64,000 nt of DNA, taken from positions 16,398 through 80,397 of the IMG/VR virus record IMGVR_UViG_3300019886_000067; one strand, given 5' to 3'. A program made the translations under genes and the position numbers. This document shows, piece after piece, positions 5,832 through 47,119 of this stretch; position 1 is the stretch's first letter; every line of letters begins with the position of its first letter. This DNA is from a virus. The notes below the pieces were generated by a model. It saw nothing but the letters and a program-made list of their open reading frames with translations, did not search any database and was not told the DNA's origin.

Positions 5832-7283
5832 GTGGCTTCTAACAAGCTACGCGCCTTGGCAGAGGCCGACCCAGAGGGCGCTAGGGCGCTCCTAGAAAAA
5901 CTGCAAGCCAAGGTAGTCATACCCCACGCGGGCGGTCAGCAGGAGATTATGGAAGACGAAACACGCTTTCAGATCGTGTGCTGCGGCCGTCGATTCGGAA
6001 AGACTGTGGTTGGCGCTAAGAAGGCGCTAAAGAAGTGTCGCTCACATAATCAGATGGTGTGGTGGGTTGCGCCCACATACAAGGTTGTCAAGCGTGGATA
6101 TAAAGAGGTTCTACGCCAGCTTCCAGACAACGTACTAACCCACGCTCCGCCGAACGATTCAGCGTTTGACGCCGGCCGCAGTGTCGTACTGAAGTTCCAA
6201 AACGGCAGTAAGATGGAGTTCTACTCCGCCGAGCGTCCAGAGGGAATGCTTGGAGAGGGCGTCGATTACGTGGTGCTGGACGAGGCGGCTACTATGCCTA
6301 AGCACGTCTGGGAGACGGTCGTGCGTCCTACGCTGATCGACCGTGAGGGCCAAGCCCTGATGATCTCTACGCCGCGTGGGCGCAACTGGTTCTACTACCT
6401 ATGGCTACGAGGCCAGAAGGACGGCACTGGCTACAAGTCATGGCGCTTCCCCACGGCCGCTAACCCACACTTGCCGCCATCTGAGATAGAGGATATGAAG
6501 GCGACGATGCCGCTTGTGACGTTCCAGCAGGAGGTTCTAGCTGAGTTCATCGCTTCCGCCGGCAGCGTGTTCAGGTTCAACGCCGATATCATCATAGAGC
6601 AAATGCGACCCCAGGGAAGAGTTGTCGTTGGGGTTGACTTGGCGAAGACAAATGATTTCACTGTGTTCAGTGCTGGCAACTCTAGCGATATGACGCCTTG
6701 CGGGTTTGATCGTTTCAACGAGGTCGCCTGGAAAGTCCAACGCGAGCGCCTAAAGCAATTTGTAAAGCAGTTGAAGAAAGAAGGAGCTACGCATGTGACG
6801 CTCTTGATGGATTCGACCGGCGTAGGCGACCCTATCGTAGAGGAAATGGAAGCAGACGGCTTCGATGTCGTCGGCATAAATTTCACCAAAACCAAGCAAC
6901 ACATGGTCACTCAGCTTTCAAAGGACTTGGAAGACGGGCAAGTGCGGCTATTTGAAGGCGAAGAAATTCACGAGTTCGAGAACTACACGTACAAAATCAC
7001 GGACGCCGGCCGCTGGACCTACTCTGCGCCAGAGGGTCAGCACGACGATTGTGTGGCCGCTAAGATGCTGCAACATTGGGGGATCGTGCAGGAGGGAGCC
7101 CCAGATGTCACGTCCATATCTGCGTCTGACGACGACCCAGAAGAGGAAGACGAGGAGGATGAGTACGACTACCTACTTGATGAGGAAGCGTCCGACACGG
7201 GCATTCCTGTCAGCGTAACGATAGAGGCAGACACCACGGCAATGCTGATGGGTCGAATGTCTGCGTGGACTGGCGAGCGCTAA
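5832..7283 (+). CDS. terL: terminase large subunit
   Basis: Walker A GRRFGKT, Walker B VVLDEAA, ISTPRG, nuclease GVDLAK and HDDCV. Confidence 0.95.
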   Translation: MASNKLRALAEADPEGARALLEKLQAKVVIPHAGGQQEIMEDETRFQIVCCGRRFGKTVVGAKKALKKCRSHNQMVWWVAPTYKVVKRGYKEVLRQLPDNVLTHAPPNDSAFDAGRSVVLKFQNGSKMEFYSAERPEGMLGEGVDYVVLDEAATMPKHVWETVVRPTLIDREGQALMISTPRGRNWFYYLWLRGQKDGTGYKSWRFPTAANPHLPPSEIEDMKATMPLVTFQQEVLAEFIASAGSVFRFNADIIIEQMRPQGRVVVGVDLAKTNDFTVFSAGNSSDMTPCGFDRFNEVAWKVQRERLKQFVKQLKKEGATHVTLLMDSTGVGDPIVEEMEADGFDVVGINFTKTKQHMVTQLSKDLEDGQVRLFEGEEIHEFENYTYKITDAGRWTYSAPEGQHDDCVAAKMLQHWGIVQEGAPDVTSISASDDDPEEEDEEDEYDYLLDEEASDTGIPVSVTIEADTTAMLMGRMSAWTGER

Positions 7284-35745: not shown

Positions 35746-35766
35746 AAGCGGGGTGATTCCTACAAG

Positions 35767-35842
35767 TACGGCGAACGAGAATCGAACTCGCATTATCCAC
35801 GCTGAGAACGTGGGGTCCTAGTCCTAGTTAGACGACCGCCGC
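35767..35842 (-). tRNA. tRNA-Glu(CTC)
   Basis: CCACG-TTCTCAG-CGTGG; T-loop TTCGATT. Confidence 0.9.
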
Positions 35843-35845
35843 GTA

Positions 35846-35917
35846 TAGCAGACCGAGGATTCGCGCCTCGCTCCCAGGCTTATGAGGCCCGGATGGTCAC
35901 TAGACCACCTGTCTGCA
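35846..35917 (-). tRNA. tRNA-Met(CAT), initiator-like, atypical
   Basis: Loop CTCATAA, unpaired 1:72, T-loop CGCGAAT. Confidence 0.7.
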
Positions 35918-35918
35918 A

Positions 35919-35990
35919 AGTCCCTGTCGGGATTCGAACCCGAACCATTCGCTTAGGAGGCAAACGCGCTATCCATTACGCCACAAGGAC
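35919..35990 (-). tRNA. tRNA-Arg(CCT)
   Basis: Loop CTCCTAA. Confidence 0.9.
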
Positions 35991-35993
35991 ATA

Positions 35994-36062
35994 TCTCCCT
36001 ACTGAGAATCGAACTCAGCCTAACAGATTAGAAGTCCGCCGTCCCGATCCACGGGCAAGGAG
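35994..36062 (-). tRNA. tRNA-Arg(TCT), short D-arm
   Basis: Loop CTTCTAA; 69 nt. Confidence 0.8.
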
Positions 36063-36066
36063 TAAG

Positions 36067-36135
36067 TCCCAAGAGCAGGATTCGAACCTGCACCGCGCGG
36101 CTTATGAGTCCGCCGTGTCACCTAGACATCCTGGG
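36067..36135 (-). tRNA. tRNA-Met/Ile2(CAT), short D-arm
   Basis: Loop CTCATAA; 69 nt. Confidence 0.75.
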
Positions 36136-36140
36136 TAGAG

Positions 36141-36209
36141 CGGGGAAGCAACGAATCGAACGCTGGCCTGCGGGTTTGGAATCCGCTTGGTCTCCATGAC
36201 CTCTTCCCC
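36141..36209 (-). tRNA. tRNA-Trp(CCA), short D-arm
   Basis: Loop TTCCAAA; G73. Confidence 0.8.
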
Positions 36210-36257
36210 TGGTTTCGTGTGCCCACCCACTATCGGGGGTAACACGACACACGAAAG

Positions 36258-36332
36258 GGTGTCTGACGGGATTCGAACCCGCATCGAACCGGATCACAAC
36301 CGGCGGACTTAACCACTTAGACCACAGACACC
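36258..36332 (-). tRNA. tRNA-His(GTG)
   Basis: Loop TTGTGAT; encoded G-1:C73. Confidence 0.9.
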
Positions 36333-36337
36333 GTGTA

Positions 36338-36406
36338 TCCCCTTACTGAGAGTCGAACTCAGCACTCAGGCTTCGGAGGCCCGAGACACGATCCGCGTGT
36401 AAGGAG
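36338..36406 (-). tRNA. tRNA-Arg(CCG), short D-arm
   Basis: Loop CTCCGAA; 69 nt. Confidence 0.8.
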
Positions 36407-36467
36407 TTGTCACTAGTGGGCTCGCGGGAAGCCCTTTATGAGGGACCTATCTCCCTCGCTAGTGTAG

Positions 36468-36542
36468 CGCTGATGATGGGACTCGAACCCACGACATTCC
36501 GCTCGACAGGCGGACGCTCTGACCAAACTGAGCTACATCAGC
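36468..36542 (-). tRNA. tRNA-Asp(GTC)
   Basis: Loop CTGTCGA; G73. Confidence 0.9.
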
Positions 36543-36548
36543 GTAAAG

Positions 36549-36622
36549 CCTCCCCGACAGGATTCGAACCTGTAACCTCTGGTTTCGTAGACCAGCGCGC
36601 TATCCAATTACGCTACGGAGAG
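36549..36622 (-). tRNA. tRNA-Arg(ACG)
   Basis: Loop CTACGAA. Confidence 0.9.
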
Positions 36623-36625
36623 TTA

Positions 36626-36709
36626 TGCGAGTGGTGGGAGTCGAACCCACATGGCCCTTCGGCCGGCGCGGTTTGAACGCACTGCGTATCCCAATTCCAC
36701 CACACTCGC
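36626..36709 (-). tRNA. tRNA-Leu(CAA)
   Basis: Loop TTCAAAC; long variable arm. Confidence 0.9.
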
Positions 36710-36712
36710 GTA

Positions 36713-36795
36713 TACGTTCGGAGGGAGTCGAACCCTCAATCCCGATGGGCACTGGCTTCTAAGACCAGCGTGTATACCAATTCCACCACGAACGC
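36713..36795 (-). tRNA. tRNA-Leu(TAG)
   Basis: Loop CTTAGAA; long variable arm. Confidence 0.9.
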
Positions 36796-36798
36796 TCA

Positions 36799-36881
36799 TG
36801 CGATTGACAAGAGTCGAACTTGCACATTCCGAAGAACACTGCCTCCTCAAGGCAGGGCGTCTACCATTCCGCCACAATCGC
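36799..36881 (-). tRNA. tRNA-Leu(GAG)
   Basis: Loop TTGAGGA; long variable arm. Confidence 0.9.
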
Positions 36882-36887
36882 TTAAAG

Positions 36888-36961
36888 TCAGGATGGCTGG
36901 ATTTGAACCAGCGGCTTCCTCCGTCCGAGGGAGGCACGCTACCAGGCTGCGTCACATCCTG
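36888..36961 (-). tRNA. tRNA-Pro(CGG)
   Basis: Loop CTCGGAC; C1-G72. Confidence 0.9.
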
Positions 36962-36966
36962 TTGAG

Positions 36967-37041
36967 TCGGGATAGAAGGATTTGAACCTTCGGCTTCACC
37001 GCCCCAAACGGCGCGCTCTGACCAGACTGAGCTATATCCCG
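36967..37041 (-). tRNA. tRNA-Pro(TGG)
   Basis: Loop TTTGGGG; C1-G72. Confidence 0.9.
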
Positions 37042-37047
37042 AAAAAG

Positions 37048-37120
37048 CTCTTGCGCTAGGATTCGAACCTAGACCTAACGGGTTAACAGCCCGTCGTGCT
37101 GCCGTTGACACCACGCAAGA
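37048..37120 (-). tRNA. tRNA-Asn(GTT)
   Basis: Loop CTGTTAA; U1-A72. Confidence 0.9.
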
Positions 37121-37126
37121 TCGAAG

Positions 37127-37198
37127 CTGGGGAGGTAGGATTCGAACCTACATCGGGCCGGGTCAGAGCCGTCCATCTTGCCATTAGACCACTCCCCA
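37127..37198 (-). tRNA. tRNA-Gln(CTG)
   Basis: Loop CTCTGAC; U1-A72. Confidence 0.88.
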
Positions 37199-37203
37199 GG
37201 GTA

Positions 37204-37275
37204 ATGCGGAGGCTGGATTCGAACCAGCATCGAATGGGTTCAAGGCCCACCATCATGCCGTTAGACCACTCCGCA
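37204..37275 (-). tRNA. tRNA-Gln(TTG)
   Basis: Loop CCTTGAA (C33); U1-A72. Confidence 0.85.
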
Positions 37276-37507
37276 GCAGAAAGAACAACATAGCACATCT
37301 TCGTGCCAAAGGTCGGGTCGTCCGGTCCCAATTCGGGATGGAACCGGACGACCGTCGCAAGAGTGCGCTCTCTGGGCTAGCTCTCCAACCCTACGCGCAC
37401 CAGGAACGCAACTAATGGGCTGTACGTGCTCTAGGCGTCTCTGCCGAAGACTGTAGCAGATTCTTTGCGGTGTTGCACGTCAAGCGAATCTGTGGTACGG
37501 TTCCCCC

Positions 37508-38950
37508 ATGAAGACAACTCCCGATCAGTTCATGGCGAGCCTTGGCTTGCCAGAGGTATATCGCGTTGGAGGTTCAGTCCGAGACGAAGTTCTCGGCCGG
37601 CGCTCCAAAGACTCCGACTATATGGTTCGGGGCTCCACGCTTAATGAGATTAGGTCGGCTGTCGGGCGCGCGGGTGCTAAGCCGAGCAAGCTCAAGCTAC
37701 GCACAGGTGTTGAGGTAGGTGTACGGGCCGCAGTCAAGGGGCTCGGCTTGCTTGAGATTGTTCTGCCGCGCACAGAGCGCTCAACTGGACCCGGCCGGCA
37801 CGATTTCGAGATTCATTGTTCGCCTGATATCCGACTTGAGGAAGATGCTCTTCGTCGTGACTTCAAAATGAATGCGATCTACCTCAACATCGCTTCTCAG
37901 CACTATGTTGATCCGCTTGGTGGGCTTGATGATATAAAACGTAAACTCATCAACACCACACATGCTGATTCCTTCAAGGAAGACCCGCTTCGCACGCTTC
38001 GAGCGCTGCGTTTCTGTTCTACGTTGCCAGGATTTTGTCTGTCAGGAACTACACACAACCAAATGTGCGACCATGCGCCGGCCGTAACTGGTCTGACGAC
38101 GAAAGGTGTCTCTGCTACCGCATTTGATGAGCTTTGCAAGCTGCTCATGGGCAGTCGGCCAAGCTTGGCGCTGGAATTGATGGCCGAAACAGGCGTTATG
38201 GCGGTTTTCCTGCCTGAGCTTGTGCCAATGCTTGACTTCGAGCAGCGTTCGCGCTACCACGAGAAGACAACAAGCAAGCACACGTTCGATGCTGTGCAGG
38301 CGGCGGCTAATATGCACCAACACGCGCCGCTTCGCGTACGTTTGGCACTACTTTTCCACGATTCCGGCAAGCCTTTGATGGCTTGGACAGGCGAGGACGG
38401 CCTTCAGCATTACTACGCGCTTGATCCAAAGCGAGCAGTAGAGCTAAATGCACCAATCGCCGCACTTGAATCACACGAGGCATGGGGCGTCAAGCAAGCG
38501 CACGCTGCTCTAACGCGCCTTGGCGCTCCAAAGAAGCTACGCCAAGACGTTGAAACACTGATTGCGCGCCATATGTTGCCGCTGCATGAGAACTTTAGGC
38601 CGATCAAGGTACGCAAGTTGCGTGCAGAGCTTGGCGACGAGCTTTTGCGTGACCTAATCACGCATCGGCTGGCTGATGTGCTCGGCAAGGGCGGTGACAC
38701 AACGGCCGCTGTAGAAGTTCTGACGTGGATTGCCAACGAGCAAGACAGGGCCATCGCCGGCCATGTGCCGCTAAGTCCGAAGGAACTTGATATAAGTGGC
38801 CGTGAACTTGTTGCGCTAGGTTTGAACGGCCGCGAAATCGGACGCGTGCAGAAGCAGCTACTACACGAGGTACTTGCTCAGCCTAAGCTCAACACAAACG
38901 AGTGGCTTGTCAATCGAGCCAAGGTCATACGCCACAAGGATATGAAATGA
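37508..38950 (+). CDS. cca: CCA-adding tRNA nucleotidyltransferase with HD domain
   Basis: YRVGGSVRD..LG..SKDSD, EDALRRDFKMNA, FKEDPLRTLRALRF, LALLFHDSGKP. Confidence 0.93.
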   Translation: MKTTPDQFMASLGLPEVYRVGGSVRDEVLGRRSKDSDYMVRGSTLNEIRSAVGRAGAKPSKLKLRTGVEVGVRAAVKGLGLLEIVLPRTERSTGPGRHDFEIHCSPDIRLEEDALRRDFKMNAIYLNIASQHYVDPLGGLDDIKRKLINTTHADSFKEDPLRTLRALRFCSTLPGFCLSGTTHNQMCDHAPAVTGLTTKGVSATAFDELCKLLMGSRPSLALELMAETGVMAVFLPELVPMLDFEQRSRYHEKTTSKHTFDAVQAAANMHQHAPLRVRLALLFHDSGKPLMAWTGEDGLQHYYALDPKRAVELNAPIAALESHEAWGVKQAHAALTRLGAPKKLRQDVETLIARHMLPLHENFRPIKVRKLRAELGDELLRDLITHRLADVLGKGGDTTAAVEVLTWIANEQDRAIAGHVPLSPKELDISGRELVALGLNGREIGRVQKQLLHEVLAQPKLNTNEWLVNRAKVIRHKDMK

Positions 38951-39150
38951 GCGCTCCGATTTATCCTCCGTGGACGAAGAAGTACAAGCTAAGCTACCTT
39001 GGCTTCAATAACTACGAGGTAATAGAGGAGTCATCAAAAGACATACTCGCGGTCGGTCCTTTGGAGTATGGCGAGGCACAAGACATTGCTGATCGCGCCA
39101 ATTCCGAACTCACAGCCGAACGTGTCAAGAACAGAAACAAGGCCAAATGA
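38947..39150 (+). CDS. hypothetical protein
   Basis: ATGA overlap with cca. Confidence 0.55.
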   Translation: MSAPIYPPWTKKYKLSYLGFNNYEVIEESSKDILAVGPLEYGEAQDIADRANSELTAERVKNRNKAK

Positions 39151-39322
39151 TAAATCTGGCCTTTGTCTGCGCCGGCCTGCTGGGTGTTTTGATGTTCATG
39201 TGTCTCGCGCACGAACGCGAGCTTGAGCGTGAAGAGTGCCCACATCTTAATTGCCGCGAATTTGGAAGCTCCTACAATATCACTATCTGTTTTTGCCCAG
39301 ATTGCGGAAAGGTAGACCTACT

Positions 39323-39766
39323 ATGATCCTGCGTAACCAAGCCATATGTACGCTGTGTGGCGACCACATCAAGTCGATACACAAACATGATTTCAAATCT
39401 TGTTTATGTGGAGCGCTATCAGTTGACGGCGGCACTGAGTATCTGCGCCGGCTCGGCAACCCAGGAGAGTACAGAGACACGTCTATTTGTATTCCCGAGC
39501 AGCTTCCGATCAAGGAGGCCGCAAAGTATCTCGGCGTCGTAGTGGCGCTGGGAGATACGGCCGTTGCAGGAACTTCGTGGCTAGAAGGCCAGTTGATAGG
39601 TCAGTTCAAGACTAAGCCTTGGTTCAAGCCGCCGAAGGACAAACGACAACTACTCAAGTGGTGTCGGAAGCTCGTGGAATGGGAGTTGGTTGATGAGCTT
39701 ACGACTAAGGGCGACGCTCAGTGCTATTGGAAATCCAAAGTCGAGCTAGCTACTTGGACTGATTAA
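39323..39766 (+). CDS. Cys-rich zinc-ribbon phage protein
   Basis: NQAICTLCGDHIKS.HKHDFKSCLCGALSVDGG. Confidence 0.7.
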   Translation: MILRNQAICTLCGDHIKSIHKHDFKSCLCGALSVDGGTEYLRRLGNPGEYRDTSICIPEQLPIKEAAKYLGVVVALGDTAVAGTSWLEGQLIGQFKTKPWFKPPKDKRQLLKWCRKLVEWELVDELTTKGDAQCYWKSKVELATWTD

Positions 39767-39767
39767 T

Positions 39768-39834
39768 TATGCACGATCACGCAGATTAGATGATGTTCTC
39801 TTCGCCTAGAAGTAAATCTGCGTGATCGTGCATA
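39768..39834. repeat. perfect 20-bp inverted repeat with 27-nt loop
   Basis: TATGCACGATCACGCAGATT...AATCTGCGTGATCGTGCATA between convergent genes. Confidence 0.85.
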
Positions 39835-39838
39835 CGAC

Positions 39839-40159
39839 TTAGTTAGTCTTGGTGACTACTCCGCCTGCCTGGGATTCCTGGGCAGCCAGCGGCAAAGGAG
39901 TGGCCTGCGCTGCTGCTGGTGCAGCCGGCGGAAAAGTAAGTTTCGCAAGCTCATTCTCAGACGTGTCGATACGGCTCTTGACCGTATCTAGGTAGCTCTC
40001 AAGCTGAGCGCTCTGAGAAGCAAGCGCGGAAAGCTGAGAAGTCGCACGAACGAACTCTGCCTTATGTGACTCAAGAAGTTGCTCGGCTGCTGCAATCTTG
40101 TGAGCTACAGTGCCCGGCACAAGCTTCTCGACAAAGTTCAATGCGTCAGAGATATTCAT
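39839..40159 (-). CDS. hypothetical coiled-coil protein
   Basis: Downstream of tRNA array 2. Confidence 0.6.
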   Translation of the reverse strand: MNISDALNFVEKLVPGTVAHKIAAAEQLLESHKAEFVRATSQLSALASQSAQLESYLDTVKSRIDTSENELAKLTFPPAAPAAAQATPLPLAAQESQAGGVVTKTN

Positions 40160-40213
40160 TGGTACAGTGCATCCTTCCCGTGGTTTTGTAGTAGGAGAAG
40201 GATACCATTAGAG

Positions 40214-40299
40214 CGGAAGGAGTGGGACTCGAACCCACACGCCGGCTCACGCCGACCTCAGCACTTTCCAGGCGCAGTACCGCTCCTTTGGGTCCTTCC
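40214..40299 (-). tRNA. tRNA-Ser(GGA), atypical D-arm
   Basis: Loop CTGGAAA; long variable arm; G73. Confidence 0.8.
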
Positions 40300-40307
40300 G
40301 AAAGAGA

Positions 40308-40378
40308 AGAGCACGGTTGGATTCGAACCAACGTGAGACGGGTTGCAACCGCCGGCTTCGCCCCTCAGCCACGCACTC
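40308..40378 (-). tRNA. tRNA-Cys(GCA)
   Basis: Loop TTGCAAC; U73. Confidence 0.88.
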
Positions 40379-40453
40379 ATAAGCGGGATGCACTTTGGCG
40401 CGCTCCCGAGTGCGCCTCGCTCTAGACGGCCGCAACCGACGAGCGATACTAAG

Positions 40454-40542
40454 CGGTAGGTCAGGGATTCGAACCCTGGGAACACCATTAGATGTTCGCT
40501 GGTTTAGCAAACCAGTCCATTCGGCCGCTCTGGCAACCTACC
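40454..40542 (-). tRNA. tRNA-Ser(GCT)
   Basis: Loop TTGCTAA; long variable arm. Confidence 0.9.
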
Positions 40543-40548
40543 GGAAAG

Positions 40549-40631
40549 CGGAGGGTAAGCGAATCGAACACTCACGCGGTTAGTCGTGCCCTGGGTTTCG
40601 AATCCAGTTTGCCGCCTTGGCGGTACCCTCC
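40549..40631 (-). tRNA. tRNA-Ser(CGA), atypical D-arm
   Basis: Loop TTCGAAA; long variable arm. Confidence 0.8.
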
Positions 40632-40635
40632 GAAA

Positions 40636-40715
40636 TGGAAACGTGAGGAATCGAACCTCATAGTACGAGACAGCGGGGTTACAGCCCACTTGGCGGTCCC
40701 AGCGCCAACGTTTCC
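40636..40715 (-). tRNA. tRNA-Tyr(GTA)
   Basis: Loop CTGTAAC; A73. Confidence 0.85.
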
Positions 40716-40777
40716 GAACGAAGAAGGACTATAGCATACGCTCGACACATTCGCGCCAGATGTGGTACAGTTCTTCC

Positions 40778-40987
40778 ATGAGCAACGTACAGGCCCTAGT
40801 AGGCAAGCCACTCACATTCTACGCCCGAGGCAAGAAGCGCAACATAGGCACGATCACGGATGTATCTGTCGTAGACAACGGCGTCCGATTCGCCGCAACC
40901 GTGACTGACAGCGAGGTAGCCAAGCTTCTAGGCGTTGATCCTCCTGTTGAGATAAGCGGTGGTGCTGGCGATGTCTCAAGCACCTAA
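40778..40987 (+). CDS. hypothetical protein
   Basis: TGGTACAGT-N6-ATG leaderless start. Confidence 0.55.
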   Translation: MSNVQALVGKPLTFYARGKKRNIGTITDVSVVDNGVRFAATVTDSEVAKLLGVDPPVEISGGAGDVSST

Positions 40988-41582
40988 ACTTGATCCTGCA
41001 AGTACGTGGCTTGTATCTGACACGCACTTTGGGCACGAAAACATCGTCGGCTTCGCCCGCCGCCCGCACGACCATGAGCAAGTCATTATGGAGGAATGGG
41101 CACAAACTGTTCCCGACGACGGAACGGTACTGCATCTAGGCGACTTGTCTTATAGAAATAACTCGTTCTTCAAGAACATGATCGCCAAGCACTTGACTGG
41201 CGCTCAGAAGCTCTTGATCCAAGGCAACCATGATCGTCAGCGGCCGAACTTCTATCGTGATAGCGGCTTCAAGATCGTTAAGCCTTTTGAGATTCGCTAT
41301 GTCACGCCGAAGGCTGGTGTCTGGACAGTCTCGTTCTCTCACTATCCCCTAAAGAAGTCAGCACATCCGCTTGCATCAGCAGGCGGCCTAAGACGCGTTC
41401 ATATACACGGCCACATTCACAATAACGGGTATGGCGGCAAGAATTCTCCGTTTGTTCCGTTCAGCGCAGGGCAAATCAACATCAGCGTTGAGCAGATGCA
41501 CTATCGCCCCTGCAAACTAGACGACCTTCTCAACGGCTACATAGAAGGTTGCTACGAGCCTCCGAAGGTCGAGGACAAGTGA
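40971..41582 (+). CDS. calcineurin-like metallophosphoesterase
   Basis: SDTHFGH, HLGD, GNHD, SHYP, HGHIH. Confidence 0.9.
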   Translation: MSQAPKLDPASTWLVSDTHFGHENIVGFARRPHDHEQVIMEEWAQTVPDDGTVLHLGDLSYRNNSFFKNMIAKHLTGAQKLLIQGNHDRQRPNFYRDSGFKIVKPFEIRYVTPKAGVWTVSFSHYPLKKSAHPLASAGGLRRVHIHGHIHNNGYGGKNSPFVPFSAGQINISVEQMHYRPCKLDDLLNGYIEGCYEPPKVEDK

Positions 41583-41929
41583 ACCTGCCGCCGCTCTATC
41601 ATTGGTCGCCCAGCGAGCGCCGCGTCGAAATACTGCAAGATGGGCTCAAGGTGTTCTCTGAGCCAGTCGTTCATGGAGCCGGCCGCGCTCCGTATCTGTG
41701 CTTTGGAACGTGCCCGCGCCAAGCATGGAGTCTATCTGGCGATTTGGATTGGGTGTCAGAAAAAGAGGAATGGGACCTCTGGCAAATCATCCTCTCAAAA
41801 GACGATGATGTGCATATCAGGATGGAGAGTGGCACATATATTTACGAGGTACGAACGTTCAACTCAATTCCGGCTGATCGTGTGTGGCTTGTTGCGCAAC
41901 GTGAGCCGGCGGTCTTCATCGAGCGGTAG
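41579..41929 (+). CDS. possible ADP-ribosyltransferase/Tpt1-like fold protein
   Basis: LYHWSP....EILQDGL...YLCF resembles the NAD-binding LYHGT...I...GL motif. Confidence 0.4.
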   Translation: MNLPPLYHWSPSERRVEILQDGLKVFSEPVVHGAGRAPYLCFGTCPRQAWSLSGDLDWVSEKEEWDLWQIILSKDDDVHIRMESGTYIYEVRTFNSIPADRVWLVAQREPAVFIER

Positions 41930-42007
41930 AATGGACAGAATACTTGCGTTTGCGCTACCTTTTTGCCCATACTGCAACTACATCCCGAGCTTCAAGTAAC
42001 CGCTGCT

Positions 42008-42337
42008 ATGCCCCGCGAAAAAGTTCTGACTGTTCGTATTTCTGATTGTGAGATTCAGACGTTCAAAGCCACCGGCAAAGGTGGGCAGAACCGAGACAAA
42101 CGCGATACGGCCGTTCGTATAATCCACCATCAGTCCGGGGCGCGTGGTGAATCACGTGAAGAGCGTGACCAGCTTTCCAACAAGCGCAAAGCCTTTGTCC
42201 GCATGGCGAACTCAAAGGCATTCAAGGACTGGCTTACAAGAGAGCATAGCCGTCGTATAGCCGACGTAGATGCCTGGCTTGATGAGCAGATGAAGCCAGA
42301 GAACCTTGATGTTGAGTATGGCTCGGATACCAACTAG
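42008..42337 (+). CDS. GGQ-domain peptidyl-tRNA hydrolase (release factor-like, no codon-recognition domain)
   Basis: TFKATGKGGQNRDKRDTAVRIIH..SG...REERDQLSNKRKA; 109 aa. Confidence 0.9.
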   Translation: MPREKVLTVRISDCEIQTFKATGKGGQNRDKRDTAVRIIHHQSGARGESREERDQLSNKRKAFVRMANSKAFKDWLTREHSRRIADVDAWLDEQMKPENLDVEYGSDTN

Positions 42338-42578
42338 CTCAAACAACATGCGTGTGTTTAGCGAAGCGCACAAACACAATAACCACTGGCTAGTTGAAGC
42401 TGAATGGCACGGCAAAATGCGGATTGTCCACAGTGGCCTTGACATCTACGCTGTACTTCGCTGGGCGACCCAGCATGGCTACCACGAGAAAAGCCCTGCC
42501 TAAAAGAGCAATTCTGCAACATAGTTGCAACAAAGCTAAATTAGACAGGACCGCAATGGACACCCGTCTTTCCAACGA

Positions 42579-42651
42579 TGCAACCTGTAGGAATCGAACC
42601 TACGACGCCCGGCTTTTCAGGCCGGCGCTCTACCGTCTGAGCTAAGGTTGC
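42579..42651 (-). tRNA. tRNA-Phe(GAA)
   Basis: Loop CTGAAAA. Confidence 0.92.
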
Positions 42652-42656
42652 TTGTA

Positions 42657-42728
42657 AGCGCGTGACGAGATTCGAACTCGTTCTTCTTGGTTGGAAGCCA
42701 AGTGTGCCGCCATGAACACTTCACACGC
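42657..42728 (-). tRNA. tRNA-Gly(TCC)
   Basis: Loop CTTCCAA; U73. Confidence 0.9.
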
Positions 42729-42803
42729 GAAAGGCCGGGCTCTCACCGGACTACAAGCGACCACGCTTGCCTTATGGGTCGGTACTTCCCGACAGTAACT
42801 TAA

Positions 42804-42875
42804 AGCTCTCACCGAGAATCGAACTCGATACTGACGATTACGAAACGTCCGTGTCACCAACAACACCTTGAGAGC
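42804..42875 (-). tRNA. tRNA-Thr(CGT)
   Basis: Loop TTCGTAA. Confidence 0.88.
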
Positions 42876-42878
42876 ACA

Positions 42879-42945
42879 AGCCCCATATCGGAATCGAACC
42901 GATTCTAGCTGATTACAAAACAGCCGCCAGACCATCAGATAGGGC
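42879..42945 (-). tRNA. tRNA-Thr(TGT), degenerate D-arm (67 nt)
   Basis: Loop TTTGTAA. Confidence 0.7.
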
Positions 42946-43034
42946 GTATCCACAGGCTGCCTACTTCTCCTGCTAAGAGGGTCGGCATTTAAAAGGATGT
43001 CCAAAGCAATAAGGACAAGCATTCACCTGTTAGA

Positions 43035-43106
43035 AGCTGATGACGAGAGTCGAACTCGTAACCCCTCCCATACCAAGGGAGTGCTATACCGTTAAGCCAC
43101 ACCAGC
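43035..43106 (-). tRNA. tRNA-Thr(GGT)
   Basis: Loop TTGGTAT. Confidence 0.9.
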
Positions 43107-43187
43107 GGGCGTGGCGCTCTAACCAGATTTGAGCTACACCCGAGCAAAGCTCGCGCGGTGGGCTTCGATCCCACAACCTCCACTAAG
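43107..43187 (-). ncRNA. circularly permuted tRNA-like RNA (T-arm, closed acceptor, D-arm)
   Basis: GTGG-AGGTT-GTGGG ATCGAAG CCCAC-CGCGCGAGC TTT GCTCGGGTG-TA-GCTC AAATCTGGTTA GAGC-G-CCAC. Confidence 0.8.
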
Positions 43188-43260
43188 TACCCCCGCAAGG
43201 AATCGAACCTTGTTCGCTGGCTTAAGAGGCCAGTGCTCATCCTGTTAAAGCTTCGGAGGC
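43188..43260 (-). tRNA. tRNA-Lys(CTT)
   Basis: Loop CTCTTAA. Confidence 0.9.
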
Positions 43261-43266
43261 TTGTAG

Positions 43267-43358
43267 TGCGCCTGATGGGACTCGAACCCACATCCGTTGG
43301 TGTGAAAAACCAATGCTGGGGACAACTCAGTTGCCTCTACCATTTCAGCTACAGACGC
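43267..43358 (-). tRNA. tRNA-Glu(TTC) with a hairpin inserted in the D-loop
   Basis: D-stem GCTG/CAGC encloses GGCAAC-TGA-GTTGTC; anticodon arm TTGGT-TTTTCAC-ACCAA. Confidence 0.7.
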
Positions 43359-43364
43359 TTAAAG

Positions 43365-43438
43365 TGCCCCCTCTGGGATTCGAACCCAGTTCTCACCGCT
43401 TAAAAGGCGGGGTTCTAACACACATGAACTAAGGAGGC
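43365..43438 (-). tRNA. tRNA-Lys(TTT)
   Basis: Loop CTTTTAA. Confidence 0.88.
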
Positions 43439-43443
43439 GTGCA

Positions 43444-43516
43444 AGCAACAGACGGGATTCGAACCCGCAACCTTCGACATGGCAAGCCGACGCACTACCG
43501 AACGTGCTCCTGTTGC
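43444..43516 (-). tRNA. tRNA-Gly(GCC)
   Basis: Loop TTGCCAT; U73. Confidence 0.88.
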
Positions 43517-43521
43517 GTAAG

Positions 43522-43595
43522 TACGCCCCCAAGGATTTGAACCTTGAACCAACACCTTATAAGGATGCTGCTCTAACCAATTGAGCTAGAGGCGC
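43522..43595 (-). tRNA. tRNA-Ile(TAT)
   Basis: Loop CTTATAA; canonical cloverleaf. Confidence 0.88.
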
Positions 43596-43600
43596 GAGAG

Positions 43601-43675
43601 TGGATCGAGAAGGATTTGAACCTTCGACAGTTCGCGTATCAGACGAATGCTCTAACCTGACTGAGCTACCGATCC
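43601..43675 (-). tRNA. tRNA-Ile(GAT)
   Basis: Loop CTGATAC. Confidence 0.9.
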
Positions 43676-43680
43676 ATGAG

Positions 43681-43754
43681 TGGACAATCTCGGACTCGAA
43701 CCGAGGACTTCCGCCTTGTAAAAGCGGCGCTCTAACCAACTGAGCTAATCGTCC
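43681..43754 (-). tRNA. tRNA-Val(TAC)
   Basis: Loop TTTACAA. Confidence 0.9.
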
Positions 43755-43758
43755 ATAA

Positions 43759-43827
43759 ACGGGAAGGCTGGACTCGGACCAGCATCTACCGGCCCCACGC
43801 CGGCCGCTCTAATTGAGCTACCTCCCT
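43759..43827 (-). tRNA. atypical tRNA-like gene (Pro-like loop CGTGGGG), possibly a pseudo-tRNA
   Basis: Cloverleaf with A1:G72 mismatch, G33, short D-loop without GG, T-loop TCCGAGT. Confidence 0.55.
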
Positions 43828-43829
43828 AG

Positions 43830-43902
43830 TGGTCAATGCTGGACTCGAACCAGCGACTTCGGCGATGTCACCGCCGCGCTCTCCCAACTGAGCTAATCGA
43901 CC
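43830..43902 (-). tRNA. tRNA-Val(GAC)
   Basis: Loop GTGACAT. Confidence 0.88.
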
Positions 43903-43908
43903 AAGAAG

Positions 43909-43981
43909 TGGAGAAGATGGGATTCGAACCCACGACATCCTGCTTGCAAAACAGGCGCTCTACCAACTGAGCTACATCCCC
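43909..43981 (-). tRNA. tRNA-Ala(TGC)
   Basis: Loop TTTGCAA; G3:U70. Confidence 0.92.
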
Positions 43982-44108: not shown

Positions 44109-44324
44109 CTAGCGCACGCGAGTGATCCTGTTCTTGAATGGTTCGTATGAATTGAGTATCTTGGACTCTTCAGGATCGGATGTTTCGTAGGCATGGCCGG
44201 GGCTCATTTTAGCCGCCATGACTTTGCCGTTTGGCTCTGCGGCCATCAACAGCGTTTCGCCGCCGGCCAACGGCAGATAGGCCGGCGGTTCATGTTTGAG
44301 GTTGGCGAACAACAGCGCTAGCAT
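44109..44324 (-). CDS. small putative virion protein
   Basis: GHAYETSDP motif shared with the C-terminus of 45204..46220. Confidence 0.6.
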   Translation of the reverse strand: MLALLFANLKHEPPAYLPLAGGETLLMAAEPNGKVMAAKMSPGHAYETSDPEESKILNSYEPFKNRITRVR

Positions 44325-45184
44325 TAGTCGCCTAGTCTAATGGCCTGCAAGCTAAAGAACGCCTGTGCTCCCGCTCCGTTGACGTATTCTACGCGAACCC
44401 AGCGGGTACTTGGGCGATGAATTATCTCGCCGTAGAATTCACATCCAGTAGCTTTCGCAAGTTCGACTGTCTTTACCTTCTTGAAGGTTATGTTGTCACG
44501 GCTGACTTCTAGAAAGATAGTTCCGATAACATCGGCTGTTGCGCTGACACGGAACTCGTATTGCCCGAGGCTTCCGTTTGAGAAGCCCGTCGCTGTGGCA
44601 GTTGTGGTCAAATCAATAGAGGCTGACTGAACTTTGGCGGCAGAGCCGAGTGTAGTAGAGGAAAGATCGGTCCACTGACCCGGAGCAAATGTGCCACCGA
44701 CGATAGTTCCAGAAGCAGCGAACACCACTCCGACAACTGTCTCATAATTGGACGCACCCTGCGCCACCGATACTTCTACTGTGCCAGATGTGTAAGCCGT
44801 GCAGTGAACGCGAATGTGCGTGGAACCTGCCGGAATCGCTGCCTCCCATGCCACAGTGCTGTTCGTGGCTGCGGAAAGCGGAGTCGTGGTCGGAGAACCA
44901 GAAGCTACGTTAGCGCCTTGAAATCCCATCCATGTTGTGCCGCCGTCATGGCTTGCTTCGCAAATAGCCGTAACACCAGCGTATACACCTTTGAAGTAGA
45001 AGACACACATAGTTTGTCCTGCTTCTACAGGCGCTATGACTTCTGCGCCGGCACCTGCTGTGCCGGTCAGCGTGCCGTTTACTACGCTATCAGCCTGCTT
45101 AGATGTCTGCTGTATAAGCTGATTCGAGGCGTTTTCGTTGAAGAGAACGAGTTGCCCCGAGGGCAGTAGGACTGTTGCAGACAT
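44324..45184 (-). CDS. beta-rich putative virion decoration protein
   Basis: EASHDGGTTW, EVSRDNITF, RWVRVEYVNG jelly-roll-like motifs; similar to the C-terminal half of 27609..28337. Confidence 0.6.
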   Translation of the reverse strand: MSATVLLPSGQLVLFNENASNQLIQQTSKQADSVVNGTLTGTAGAGAEVIAPVEAGQTMCVFYFKGVYAGVTAICEASHDGGTTWMGFQGANVASGSPTTTPLSAATNSTVAWEAAIPAGSTHIRVHCTAYTSGTVEVSVAQGASNYETVVGVVFAASGTIVGGTFAPGQWTDLSSTTLGSAAKVQSASIDLTTTATATGFSNGSLGQYEFRVSATADVIGTIFLEVSRDNITFKKVKTVELAKATGCEFYGEIIHRPSTRWVRVEYVNGAGAQAFFSLQAIRLGD

Positions 45185-45203
45185 TGTAACCTACTATACC
45201 TGG

Positions 45204-46220
45204 CTATTCGACTTTCACAACAACCCCAGGAAAGTCGTTTTCCAGTACCTTGATTGTCTGTGGGTCTTCCGTTTCATACGGGGTTCCAGAGTTTAGAACT
45301 GCTGTCACTAGTTGACCGTTTGCAGCCTTGACTTTCTCAATCGTCAGTTTCGTGCCGCTTTTGGTCGGTTCAAACAGCGCTGCGGCTACGGTGTAGGAGA
45401 ATGTAGCCGTTGTGGTGCCGCCAGAGTTGTTTTCGGCCGTGACTTTGATGCTGTAGCTTCCAGTCGTTGTAAGCGAGCCCGTGATAAGGCCAGTAATGTT
45501 GTTGATGGTGAGACCAGGAGGCAAGCCACTCGCGCTGTAAAATACAGCGCGAGTGGCAATAATCTGGATTGAAACTTTGCTCCCGGTGGCTTTTTTCTGC
45601 GTCCCTGGGTTCGTAACTTCTGGTGCAGCTTCTTCAGCTTGTTCAGCGGCCATGAAGTTCGTAAATAGCGGGTAGGAGCCTTGGCCGTCAGAGCCAACGA
45701 ATCCGGCAGTGAATGGCGTGTTCGGGTCTTTCGCGTTCAAAACGAGAACCCACGAGCCGGAACCTTCAGGCCGGCGGTAAGCTTCTAGTTTGTTGCCCTG
45801 CTTCCAAAGTGCGAATTCATCACCAGCGGCCGGACTTATAGAGCCAGAAAGGCCAATGCTTGATTCAACGCCGCTTTCAACACGGAATATACCAATTAGG
45901 AGAGTAGATGACGTGTTGTGGTAAAACTGGACTCGATAGCCTGAGTGCGTCGTGTTGTTGTAGCAAAGCCACAAGCATCCGAATCGTTCGGCAATATCCG
46001 AGCCGAGTGACCGCTTGATCGTCACAGCATGGTTGTTTTTGAATTCTTTAGCGTTCCAGTAAGACCCAGAAGACAACCCAAAACCCGAGTATGACATTCC
46101 GCCGGCCGCACTTTTCAGAGCACCCGTAGCCCATGTCATCTTACTCCAATTTGCTTTTTCATACCAAGTAGTTTCGGCATGTTGAAGGTTGTCTTGGAGC
46201 GTAAGTTCTTCTAGGAACAC
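45204..46220 (-). CDS. putative virion protein with He_PIG-type Ig domain
   Basis: YSASGLPPGLTINNITGLITGS...GSYSIKVTA. Confidence 0.75.
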   Translation of the reverse strand: MFLEELTLQDNLQHAETTWYEKANWSKMTWATGALKSAAGGMSYSGFGLSSGSYWNAKEFKNNHAVTIKRSLGSDIAERFGCLWLCYNNTTHSGYRVQFYHNTSSTLLIGIFRVESGVESSIGLSGSISPAAGDEFALWKQGNKLEAYRRPEGSGSWVLVLNAKDPNTPFTAGFVGSDGQGSYPLFTNFMAAEQAEEAAPEVTNPGTQKKATGSKVSIQIIATRAVFYSASGLPPGLTINNITGLITGSLTTTGSYSIKVTAENNSGGTTTATFSYTVAAALFEPTKSGTKLTIEKVKAANGQLVTAVLNSGTPYETEDPQTIKVLENDFPGVVVKVE

Positions 46221-46258
46221 TCACCAATTCTGCCACAGCAACCGGCTTTCAGCCGTGC

Positions 46259-46307
46259 GACAATATCGTCACATACGCCCGATTCGAACGAATGTGACGA
46301 TATTGTC
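46259..46307. repeat. 16-bp inverted repeat directly 3' of the RNase P RNA
   Basis: GACAATATCGTCACAT...ATGTGACGATATTGTC; loop contains CG-TTCGAAT-CG on the - strand. Confidence 0.8.
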
Positions 46308-46311
46308 ACAA

Positions 46312-46667
46312 ATGGGGTCCAGCCTGTAGCCGGGGTTCTGTTCCCAGGACGACAAACCCCTGGGCGACCACGATCTTTCTTACCGGGCTGACTAATTCCC
46401 GGCAGCCGTCCTATGACGTGCCGCTCCAAACCTTGATCGCCCCCGCTATGCTTCGGGCGTCTGTTCTTGGATCGCACCCAGCCTTGGCAACTCGCGCGTG
46501 CGCGCGTCTCGCGGTTCAAGCGTCCCGTGCTACTGTCCGCATCGCTCTCGCAACTTGGCCCCAACAAGGACTCCCGCCGGCCGGTGACGACGAGGTTAGC
46601 CCTCGTCGGGGTGCCCCGAACTTCCTCTCGCGTCCTTCAACCGCGAGCCGCAGTCCGGCTGGCCCAC
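46312..46667 (-). ncRNA. rnpB: RNase P RNA
   Basis: GAGGAAGTTCGGGGCACC (46627-46610) and AACAGAACCCCGGCTAC (46342-46326) form P4; P1, P2, P3, P5 and P19 can all be paired; about 355 nt. Confidence 0.88.
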
Positions 46668-46670
46668 TAA

Positions 46671-46732
46671 AACGAAGAGAGGGATTCGAGCCCTCTACTG
46701 CCAACATCGCAGCCACCATACCTTGCTCCGCT
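46671..46732 (-). ncRNA. D-armless tRNA-like element
   Basis: AGCGGAG/CTTCGTT acceptor, GCTGC-GATGTTG-GCAGT arm, AGAGGG-CTCGAAT-CCCTCT T-arm. Confidence 0.55.
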
Positions 46733-46790
46733 CCGAAGGTTTCTGTACTTGGAGTCGTTAGACGATAATCCGTGTTGAAACCTACAAACA

Positions 46791-46870
46791 TGGAGAAGGA
46801 GGGATTCGAACCCTCGTCTTACCGCTGCGCCATTAGCGCGTTACACGGCAATCGACACCAAGCCTTCCCC
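46791..46870 (-). ncRNA. mini-tmRNA: tRNA-like domain only, no mRNA-like domain
   Basis: GGGGAAG/CTTCTCC-A with G3:U70, stemless D-loop ending GGTGTCGA, helix TTGCCG/CGGTAA, GAC linker, T-arm GAGGG-TTCGAAT-CCCTC. Confidence 0.8.
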
Positions 46871-46884
46871 GTCTTCAAACCATA

Positions 46885-47058
46885 TCACGTATAGCGCTCC
46901 GGCGTCTTGGTCGGCCCAAGCAGCCATATCAAGAACTTGTAAAGCAGGTAGAGCCCAATCGCAACACCCAGCACTTCGCCTAGCGCCACGGCCGTTCCTT
47001 CGCCGCCGCCGGACGCGAATCCAACAACTATCAGTAGCAATGCGATAAGAAGTATCAT
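46885..47058 (-). CDS. small two-helix membrane protein
   Basis: MILLIALLLIVVGFASGGGEGTAVALGEVLGVAIGLYLLYKFLIWLLG; TTGACA-N17-TAGGGT-N6-ATG. Confidence 0.65.
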   Translation of the reverse strand: MILLIALLLIVVGFASGGGEGTAVALGEVLGVAIGLYLLYKFLIWLLGPTKTPERYT

Positions 47059-47119
47059 GCAAGCACCCTAGCAAACCCAGGGAAGCTTGTCAAGCGCTAC
47101 GGACCAACTTCCTCGCCAC

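Follow-up and report, generated by a model that had tools for sequence, protein, structure and literature searches.

A divergent RNase P RNA gene with a rebuilt specificity domain in an uncultivated soil phage

An uncultivated soil phage carries a 356-nt RNase P RNA gene at positions 46666–46311 (minus strand) of the window, by which we mean the whole 64,000-nt stretch analysed here (positions 16,398–80,397 of IMG/VR record IMGVR_UViG_3300019886_000067). The ribozyme RNase P RNA, which trims new tRNAs, is generally seen as a housekeeping component of all cells. Full-text literature searches turned up no account of an RNase P RNA encoded by a virus, and in the phage papers found rnpB appears only as a host reference gene. 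A sequence-only reading of this DNA had proposed a divergent, phage-encoded RNase P RNA, and that observation is confirmed by (i) an end-to-end alignment to the bacterial type A family RF00010, (ii) a graded set of viral relatives, (iii) covariation in the core helices and (iv) conservation of CR-I, CR-IV, CR-V and the L15 GGU. We directly observe the homology, architecture, covariation and genomic context of the RNA. We infer, with a probability of roughly 0.7, that it is a functional phage RNase P ribozyme that is co-transcribed with tRNA-like RNAs, uses host RnpA and cuts phage tRNA precursors; its transcription, protein partner, cleavage activity and substrates are all matters of inference.

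RESULTS

Identification of the gene

46311..46666, minus strand: whole RNase P RNA gene, as delimited by the RF00010 alignment; P1 closes the gene at 46665/46315

Positions 1–367 of the RF00010 model align exactly to 46311–46666 (minus strand), end to end, with a score of 19.1 bits and an E-value of 0.0013 over 1.4 kb, or 1.8e-5 over the whole 80,397-bp record, where this is the only candidate. The aligned 356 nt agree with a length that had been estimated at about 355 nt. The alignment spans P1, P2, P3, both P4 strands, P15, J18/2 and the 3′ strands, and leaves the specificity domain unaligned. The RF00010 gathering cut-off is 100 bits, 81 bits above the window RNA, and permissive thresholds were used; at gathering thresholds Rfam reports tRNAs only in the window, and no RNase P RNA. 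With a score so far under the cut-off, the gene is missed by routine phage annotation. Neither RF00011 (type B) nor RF00373 (archaeal, with four candidates scored) has a match at E ≤ 10 anywhere in the record. Of the three RNase P models suggested earlier as a check, only RF00010 thus gives a match, at an E-value of 1.8e-5 and below its cut-off. BLASTN in distant mode found no match among GenBank phages for the window region or for the RNA of L002, one of the related loci described below.

Catalytic core

The helices and conserved motifs of the catalytic domain, in 5′ to 3′ order along the RNA, are as follows:

46657..46665, minus strand: P1 5′ strand GGGCCAGCC, pairing with 46315–46324 (GGCTGG-A-CCC) with one bulged A
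46649..46655, minus strand: P2 5′ strand GACTGCG, pairing with 46366–46372 (CGTGGTC), directly 3′ of CR-IV
46628..46647, minus strand: P3 hairpin (CTCGCG/CGCGAG); a hairpin of differing sequence lies here in every relative
46614..46627, minus strand: CR-I (J3-4) and P4 5′ strand GAGGAAGTTCGGGG, with one bulged U
46609..46613, minus strand: P5 5′ strand CACCC, pairing with 46475–46479 (GGGTG)
46425..46474, minus strand: J5/15 CGA, P15 (TCCAA/TTGGA), P16 hairpin (46459–46438) and the L15 loop ending in GGT (46432–46430)
46383..46422, minus strand: extra hairpin A (46422–46401), in a P15.1-like position, and P18 (46402–46383)
46373..46380, minus strand: CR-IV (J18-2) AGAAAGAT (AG-NNNN-AU)
46343..46364, minus strand: P19 hairpin (CCCAGGG/TCCTGGG), also in L018, L004 and L274 and absent in L003
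46326..46342, minus strand: CR-V, comprising J2-4 AACAGAA and P4 3′ strand CCCCGGCT
46255..46311, minus strand: near-perfect 19-bp hairpin directly after P1, with arms TGTGACAATATCGTCACAT and ATGTGACGATATTGTCGCA

The 5′ P4 block GAGGAAGTTCGGGGCACC (46627–46610) and the 3′ block AACAGAACCCCGGCTAC (46342–46326), both on the minus strand, form a helix of eight pairs with one bulged U. Compared with the E. coli register, two P4 pairs have changed on both sides without loss of pairing and one has become a wobble; in what we take to be E. coli numbering, the double changes are 71–356 C-G to G-C and 67–359 A-U to G-C. The bulged U and the matching changes on both strands that the sequence-only reading had described in P4 are thus present, and every sequence it quoted (the P4 blocks, P1, P2, P3, P5, P19 and the hairpin after P5) is found on the minus strand at the place it gave.

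P1 in the relatives is 7–15 bp long and built from unrelated sequences. The single-stranded motifs kept in the window RNA are GAGGAA, AGNNNGAU, ACAGAA and the L15 GGU. Of these, AGNNNGAU of CR-IV occurs in all 12 reduced sequences described below, and every sequence has GG(U) ahead of the P15 3′ strand. The GGU of L15 normally pairs with the tRNA 3′-CCA. The position that we take to be E. coli A248, the first J5/15 adenine, is a G in the window RNA, and the P18 loop is 10 nt long, with a GNRA tetraloop at this place in L225, L268, L018 and L004.

Set against criteria for RF00010, the window RNA has a P4 helix in which CR-I pairs with CR-V between flanking GAGGAA and ACAGAA, a nested P1–P2–P3 in which CR-IV runs straight into the P2 3′ strand, and the P15 internal loop with GGU. 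It does not meet the criterion of P7–P14 with conserved J11/12 and J12/13 (CR-II/CR-III), that of a P6 pseudoknot (L17 with J5/7) and a GNRA P18 loop (no P17 is present in the window RNA), or that of membership by the gathering cut-off.

The 19-bp inverted repeat is found in the window only at 46311–46255, where 0.02 would be expected by chance. We infer that this hairpin could be a 3′ processing or termination signal, an RNase III site or an operator. A small hairpin without a T run, CGGCTGAAAGCCG, follows it.

Relatives and the P4-signature lineage

We defined a clade by the exact P4 motifs GUUCGGGG/CCCCGGCU, with the bulged U kept, at a spacing of 170–580 nt and in a viral or tRNA-array context. 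The window RNA meets this definition, as do 13 viral and 18 metagenome loci. An exact-motif scan of viral contigs gives 14 loci, the window included, with both motifs 172–414 nt apart, and a metagenome scan gives the 18 loci, with spacings of 197–576 nt; the two exact motifs occur together in 30 or more independent contigs. Cellular genomes contain at least 120 matches to the 15-nt 5′ motif, none with the 3′ motif nearby among the matches listed. The listed cellular matches fit what chance would predict, and absence of the pair from cellular genomes is not proven. An earlier metagenome scan with a two-part, subfamily-specific pattern returned nothing, and a metallophosphoesterase-based search gave 80 distant phage loci, none with the P4 motif pair.

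RF00010 scores computed on whole records form a graded series:

L002: 191.1 bits, in a complete 168-kb phage with terminal repeats
L014: 66.7 bits
L017: 63.5 bits
L007: 63.1 bits
L003: 54.0 bits, the closest viral-contig relative
L004: 28.4 bits
L018: 27.1 bits, in a complete 140-kb phage
Window: 19.1 bits

L010, L005 and L011 have no RF00010 match on whole records. The P4 signature is combined with a canonical type A specificity domain (GGAAAGUGGCACAGAGA, GGGUGAAA) in L002, L227, L230, L248, L260, L278 and L281, and with a reduced design like that of the window in L225, L268, L261, L243, L254, L244, L253, L274 and L251. Between the L003 and window phages, the shared CCA enzyme, GGQ protein and phosphoesterase have amino acid identities of 59–71%. 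A profile of the relatives' interiors, L003 among them, that was built without the P4 retrieval motifs and without the window matches window positions 46604–46367 at an E-value of 4.3e-9; the corresponding nhmmer profile without L003 has no match to the window. Outside P4, the similarity of the window to its relatives at the level of sequence alone therefore rests on L003 only.

Several relatives have features of their own. The L002 RNA sits among tRNAs and a tmRNA, and standard Rfam annotation would find it. The L010 RNase P-like RNA (6578–6966, minus strand; 198 nt between the P4 motifs) belongs to a complete 167-kb phage and lies near a tmRNA that ARAGORN calls as permuted (tag ANDDTFEVRLAA). 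Two metagenome relatives, L251 (1143–1472, minus strand) and L269, have an insert of about 350 nt within the P18 part of their RNase P RNA gene. The L251 insert holds a 109-aa ORF with a CxxC…DH…CxxCH pattern and a weak Endonuclease_7 Pfam match (E 0.02, below cut-off), which points to an insertion of the homing-endonuclease type, or an intron, within the ribozyme gene.

Specificity domain

Between the two P5 strands lie a hairpin (H1), a module closed by a 4-bp helix and a small hairpin with a GCAC loop:

46588..46608, minus strand: hairpin H1, 8 bp, CGACGAGG-GCTAA-CCTCGTCG, loop GCUAA
46511..46577, minus strand: reduced core, with P10-like helix GCGG/CCGC (46577–46574/46514–46511), GAG on the 5′ side and loop GCTTGAA on the 3′ side
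46571–46522, minus strand: 50-nt hairpin enclosed in the P10-like module
46493..46506, minus strand: small hairpin CGCGC-GCAC-GCGCG, common only to L003 (GCGCC-GCAC-GGCGC)

The H1 stem differs in L003, L225, L018 and others, and the loops are GCUAA, GAAA or GCCAA. The position of H1 resembles that of P5.1, and it had at first been likened to the type B P5.1. Its GCUAA(C) loop, however, is that of P8 in canonical members of the clade (for example L002 and L248), and RF00011 has no match; from this loop identity we infer that H1 is probably P8 rather than P5.1. The archaeal look once ascribed to GCACC/GGTGC finds no support, RF00373 having no match in the record. A 4-bp P7-like pairing, GGCC/GGCU, is possible between the P5 strands.

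The helix–loop–hairpin module, with its conserved GAG/GYUUGAA loop, is found in 12 of 13 sequences. Its P10-like helix is built from six combinations (GCGG/CCGC, GUGG/CCAC, GUAG/CUAC, GAGG/CCUC, UAGG/CCUG and GAGA/UCUC), and the enclosed hairpin varies from a 3-bp GNRA hairpin up to 63 nt. By position, we take the module to correspond approximately to the P10/11, CR-II, P12 and CR-III core of reduced RNase P RNAs; this assignment is an inference, as is the possibility that the GAG/GCUUGAA loop may be a remnant of CR-II/III. A K-turn or loop-E reading of the loop was dropped because the registers do not fit. P9, P13, P14, P17/P6 and the canonical J11/12 and J12/13 motifs are not recognisable in the window RNA. 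With the S-domain cut to one hairpin and the P10–loop–hairpin module, recognition of the tRNA elbow is inferred to be probably simplified.

Shared fold and covariation

Segment-wise folding of the 12 reduced sequences gives one common layout. It begins with P1, P2, P3, P4, P5, H1, the P10-like helix enclosing its hairpin and the P5 3′ strand; continues through J5/15, P15 with its internal loop, P16, GGU, the P15 3′ strand, the extra hairpin and P18; and ends with AGNNNGAU, the P2 3′ strand, sometimes P19, the P4 3′ strand and the P1 3′ strand. About a dozen RNAs have in common P1–P5, P15 with the GGU loop, P16, P18 and CR-I/IV/V, with many compensatory changes.

Because alignment from sequence alone (MAFFT with RNAalifold) put the variable helices out of register, we used anchored analyses and a small covariance model. 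Related phages show the covariation by which the proposal could be checked, in P2, P5, P15/P16 and the P10-like helix. For P2, 9 of 11 cognate sequences have a perfect 7/7 complement, as against 12% of non-cognate combinations. The anchored pairs of P5 covary at three positions, including C-G/U-A (i = 2) and C-G/A-U/G-C (i = 4). P15 is paired 5/5 in every sequence, with variants including TCCAA/TTGGA, TCCCA/TGGGA, TCTCA/TGAGA and CCTCA/TGAGG, and all five of its pairs covary.

The small P15/P16 covariance model, R1, was made from the window, L003 and L225. Run with filters off, it has its best match at the predicted coordinates in L227, L018, L268, L261, L254 and L243 (E 2e-4 to 0.05). With default filters R1 gives a single match, in L232, 3 kb from the motif, which is probably a chance match. 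In the R1 alignment 94.8% of P15/P16 cells are paired, against 77% in shuffles, and 9 of the 12 pairs change on both sides (0 of 500 shuffles). An alignment fitted to R1 leans toward structure, but slid-partner controls, only 32–56% paired, speak against an artefact.

Genomic context

The carrier, an IMG/VR record, is 66% complete by CheckV. Its portal protein (Pfam E 3e-51) has no more than 27% identity to the portal of any cultured phage, and the host could therefore not be inferred. The DNA comes from soil metagenomes; three soil DNA runs contain the stretch, and no RNA sequencing run does among the runs listed. The neighbourhood includes:

35766–43981, minus strand: tRNA arrays, with spacers mostly of 3–8 nt
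37508–38950, plus strand: CCA-adding enzyme (PolyA_pol and RNA-binding domain), interleaved with the tRNA arrays
39251–39766, opposite to the tRNA genes: DUF7695 protein
40959–41582, opposite to the tRNA genes: metallophosphoesterase
41930–42337, opposite to the tRNA genes: RF-1/GGQ domain protein
44324–46220, minus strand: two ORFs, of 338 aa (He_PIG Ig-like domain) and 286 aa (no family)
46672–46783, minus strand: second tRNA-like element with T-arm GAGGGCTCGAATCCCTC, between the mini-tmRNA-like gene and P1
46788–46870, minus strand: tmRNA-like tRNA domain of 83 nt without a tag region (RF00023 44.6 bits, cut-off 47)
46885–47058, minus strand: small hydrophobic ORF of 57 aa, ending 14 nt before the mini-tmRNA-like gene

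The order on the minus strand is thus 57-aa ORF, mini-tmRNA-like RNA, tRNA-like element, RNase P RNA, 19-bp hairpin, two ORFs and tRNA array. RF00023 aligns to both ends of the tRNA-like domain of the mini-tmRNA-like RNA, in which 19 nt replace the mRNA-like part of about 310 nt; ARAGORN makes no call at 46788–46870. The second tRNA-like element may be a processing signal for the ribozyme 5′ end. In L225, a tmRNA-like 3′ end (…CCACCTTCTCCA) lies directly before the RNase P RNA. A promoter scan found no sigma-70-like promoter, and the matches of a terminator scan are all inside structured RNAs. A weak promoter-like pair, TTGACA…TAGGGT, lies near 47090–47060, just upstream of the 57-aa ORF.

The strand that carries the RNase P RNA also holds 33 tRNA genes in the window, none of which encodes CCA; the discriminator is usually followed by CU (CT). 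The array starts with tRNA-Ala at 43981, and the RNase P RNA lies 2.3 kb upstream. In L225, L243 and L261 the RNase P RNA is 250–830 nt upstream of tRNA-Ala, and the tRNA order (Ala, Val, Val or Ile, Gly, Lys) is close to that of the window array. From these short gaps we conclude that the gene heads the tRNA operon in relatives, and the two ORFs of the window seem to have been inserted into the RNA operon. Of 26 checked loci with such RNAs, 18 contain tRNA genes, as many as 29 in one locus.

DISCUSSION

Comparison with known RNase P RNAs

Type A is the best and only Rfam match of the window RNA. Like bacterial type A (E. coli M1 RNA/rnpB, RF00010), it has the order P1–P5, P15–P16, P18 and then the P2, P4 and P1 3′ strands, together with the CR-I GAGGAA…, CR-IV AG-NNNN-AU and CR-V ACAGAA…GGCU sequences, the P4 bulged U and the L15 GGU. 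Unlike type A, it has two double substitutions in P4, lacks P9, P13, P14, P17/P6 and the J11/12 and J12/13 motifs, and has an extra hairpin between P15 and P18 as well as P19; it is also phage-encoded, with no RnpA gene nearby. It resembles the type B layout in its hairpins at the P5.1 and P15.1 positions, in P19 and in the lack of P13/P14/P17. The absence of an RF00011 match, the P8-like loop of H1 and the lack of an evident P10.1 set it apart from type B (Bacillus).

Naturally reduced RNase P RNAs include archaeal type T (Pyrobaculum) and organellar forms. In CPR bacteria, diverged RNase P RNAs without P12/P13/P14/P18 were found with RF00010 at a reduced cut-off, and these forms are the nearest published analogy to the window RNA (PMC8172020). 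Like other reduced RNase P RNAs, the window RNA keeps the catalytic domain, shortens the specificity domain and requires lowered Rfam thresholds. It differs from them in that the S-domain is rebuilt around a conserved helix–loop–hairpin module, not simply deleted, and in that it is carried by a virus instead of a cell or an organelle. The window RNA combines full size (356 nt), a rebuilt and conserved specificity module and a diagnostic P4 signature.

Proposed function and alternatives

RnpA (PF00825) is absent from the window record and from the records of five relatives, three of the six being 100% complete. Without an RnpA gene, the RNA must use host RnpA, employ an unrecognised protein or act alone. 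A partnership with host RnpA or an unknown protein had been guessed beforehand; the absence of PF00825 fits that guess, and the identity of the partner is still inferred.

In the mechanism that we favor, the RNA would descend from bacterial type A and belong to a phage lineage whose P4 helix has changed yet keeps its pairing. It would be transcribed together with the upstream tRNA-like RNAs, which may help to define its 5′ end, and would fold into a complete catalytic domain (P1–P5, P15/L15, P18 and CR-I/IV/V). It would most likely bind host RnpA and cut the 5′ leaders and 3–8-nt spacers of the approximately 33 phage tRNA precursors; following 3′ trimming, the phage CCA-adding enzyme would finish the tRNA 3′ ends. 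Against a working ribozyme we count the low RF00010 score, the unrecognisable S-domain motifs, the altered J5/15 adenine, the lack of a GNRA P18 loop, the lack of RnpA and the lack of expression or activity data, and also the retention of the L15 GGU although no tRNA gene encodes CCA.

Some of the same observations would suit an RNase P-derived RNA with a changed job, either a decoy for RnpA that throttles host tRNA maturation or a specialised nuclease acting on the mini-tmRNA-like RNA, tRNA-like RNAs or odd phage tRNAs. The rebuilt specificity domain, the missing phage RnpA, the location of the gene directly after two tRNA-like RNAs and the L15 GGU kept alongside CCA-less tRNAs all leave room for such a role. 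A protein sponge would not need structural selection on all of the catalytic-core motifs and helices, however, and the clade includes near-canonical type A RNAs (191 bits) and has the gene heading ordinary tRNA arrays in relatives; we consider a changed job unlikely.

It is less probable still that the gene is a decaying, non-functional relic of a captured rnpB. In favor of a relic are the very low Rfam score, the loss of canonical specificity-domain elements and the lineage-specific insertions in the window copy (the 50-nt enclosed hairpin and the 10-nt P18 loop). Random loss of pairing and motifs would be expected of a relic, however, whereas some dozen diverged sequences have this same reduced architecture, all the core helices show compensatory changes among them, and CR-I/IV/V are invariant. 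A chance resemblance in a coding or otherwise unrelated region, to which the several overlapping ORFs of 67–118 aa and the sub-threshold Rfam score might point, is effectively refuted by the end-to-end RF00010 alignment, the exact P4 motif pair in 30 or more independent contigs and the P15/P16 pair statistics. In addition, comparison with relatives at the protein level finds no counterpart of the overlapping ORFs, and the indels between the window RNA and L003 break the reading frame.

Implications

We tentatively suggest, at somewhat less than even odds, that the clade is an old phage-specific RNase P lineage with its own P4 signature, ranging from near-canonical type A RNAs to rebuilt S-domains, in which the rebuilt domain would be a working alternative for holding tRNA, tuned to CCA-less phage tRNAs that often have odd D-arms. 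If this is true, these RNAs would be the first RNase P enzymes of viral origin and would form a natural series of minimised ribozymes. The clade is a graded series, from canonical to heavily rebuilt S-domains on a constant catalytic core, and this makes testable both the need for the S-domain in substrate recognition and the ability of bacterial RnpA to serve a foreign RNA. A phage with an RNase P RNA, about 33 tRNAs, a CCA-adding enzyme and parts of ribosome rescue would take over the maturation of tRNAs in addition to their supply.
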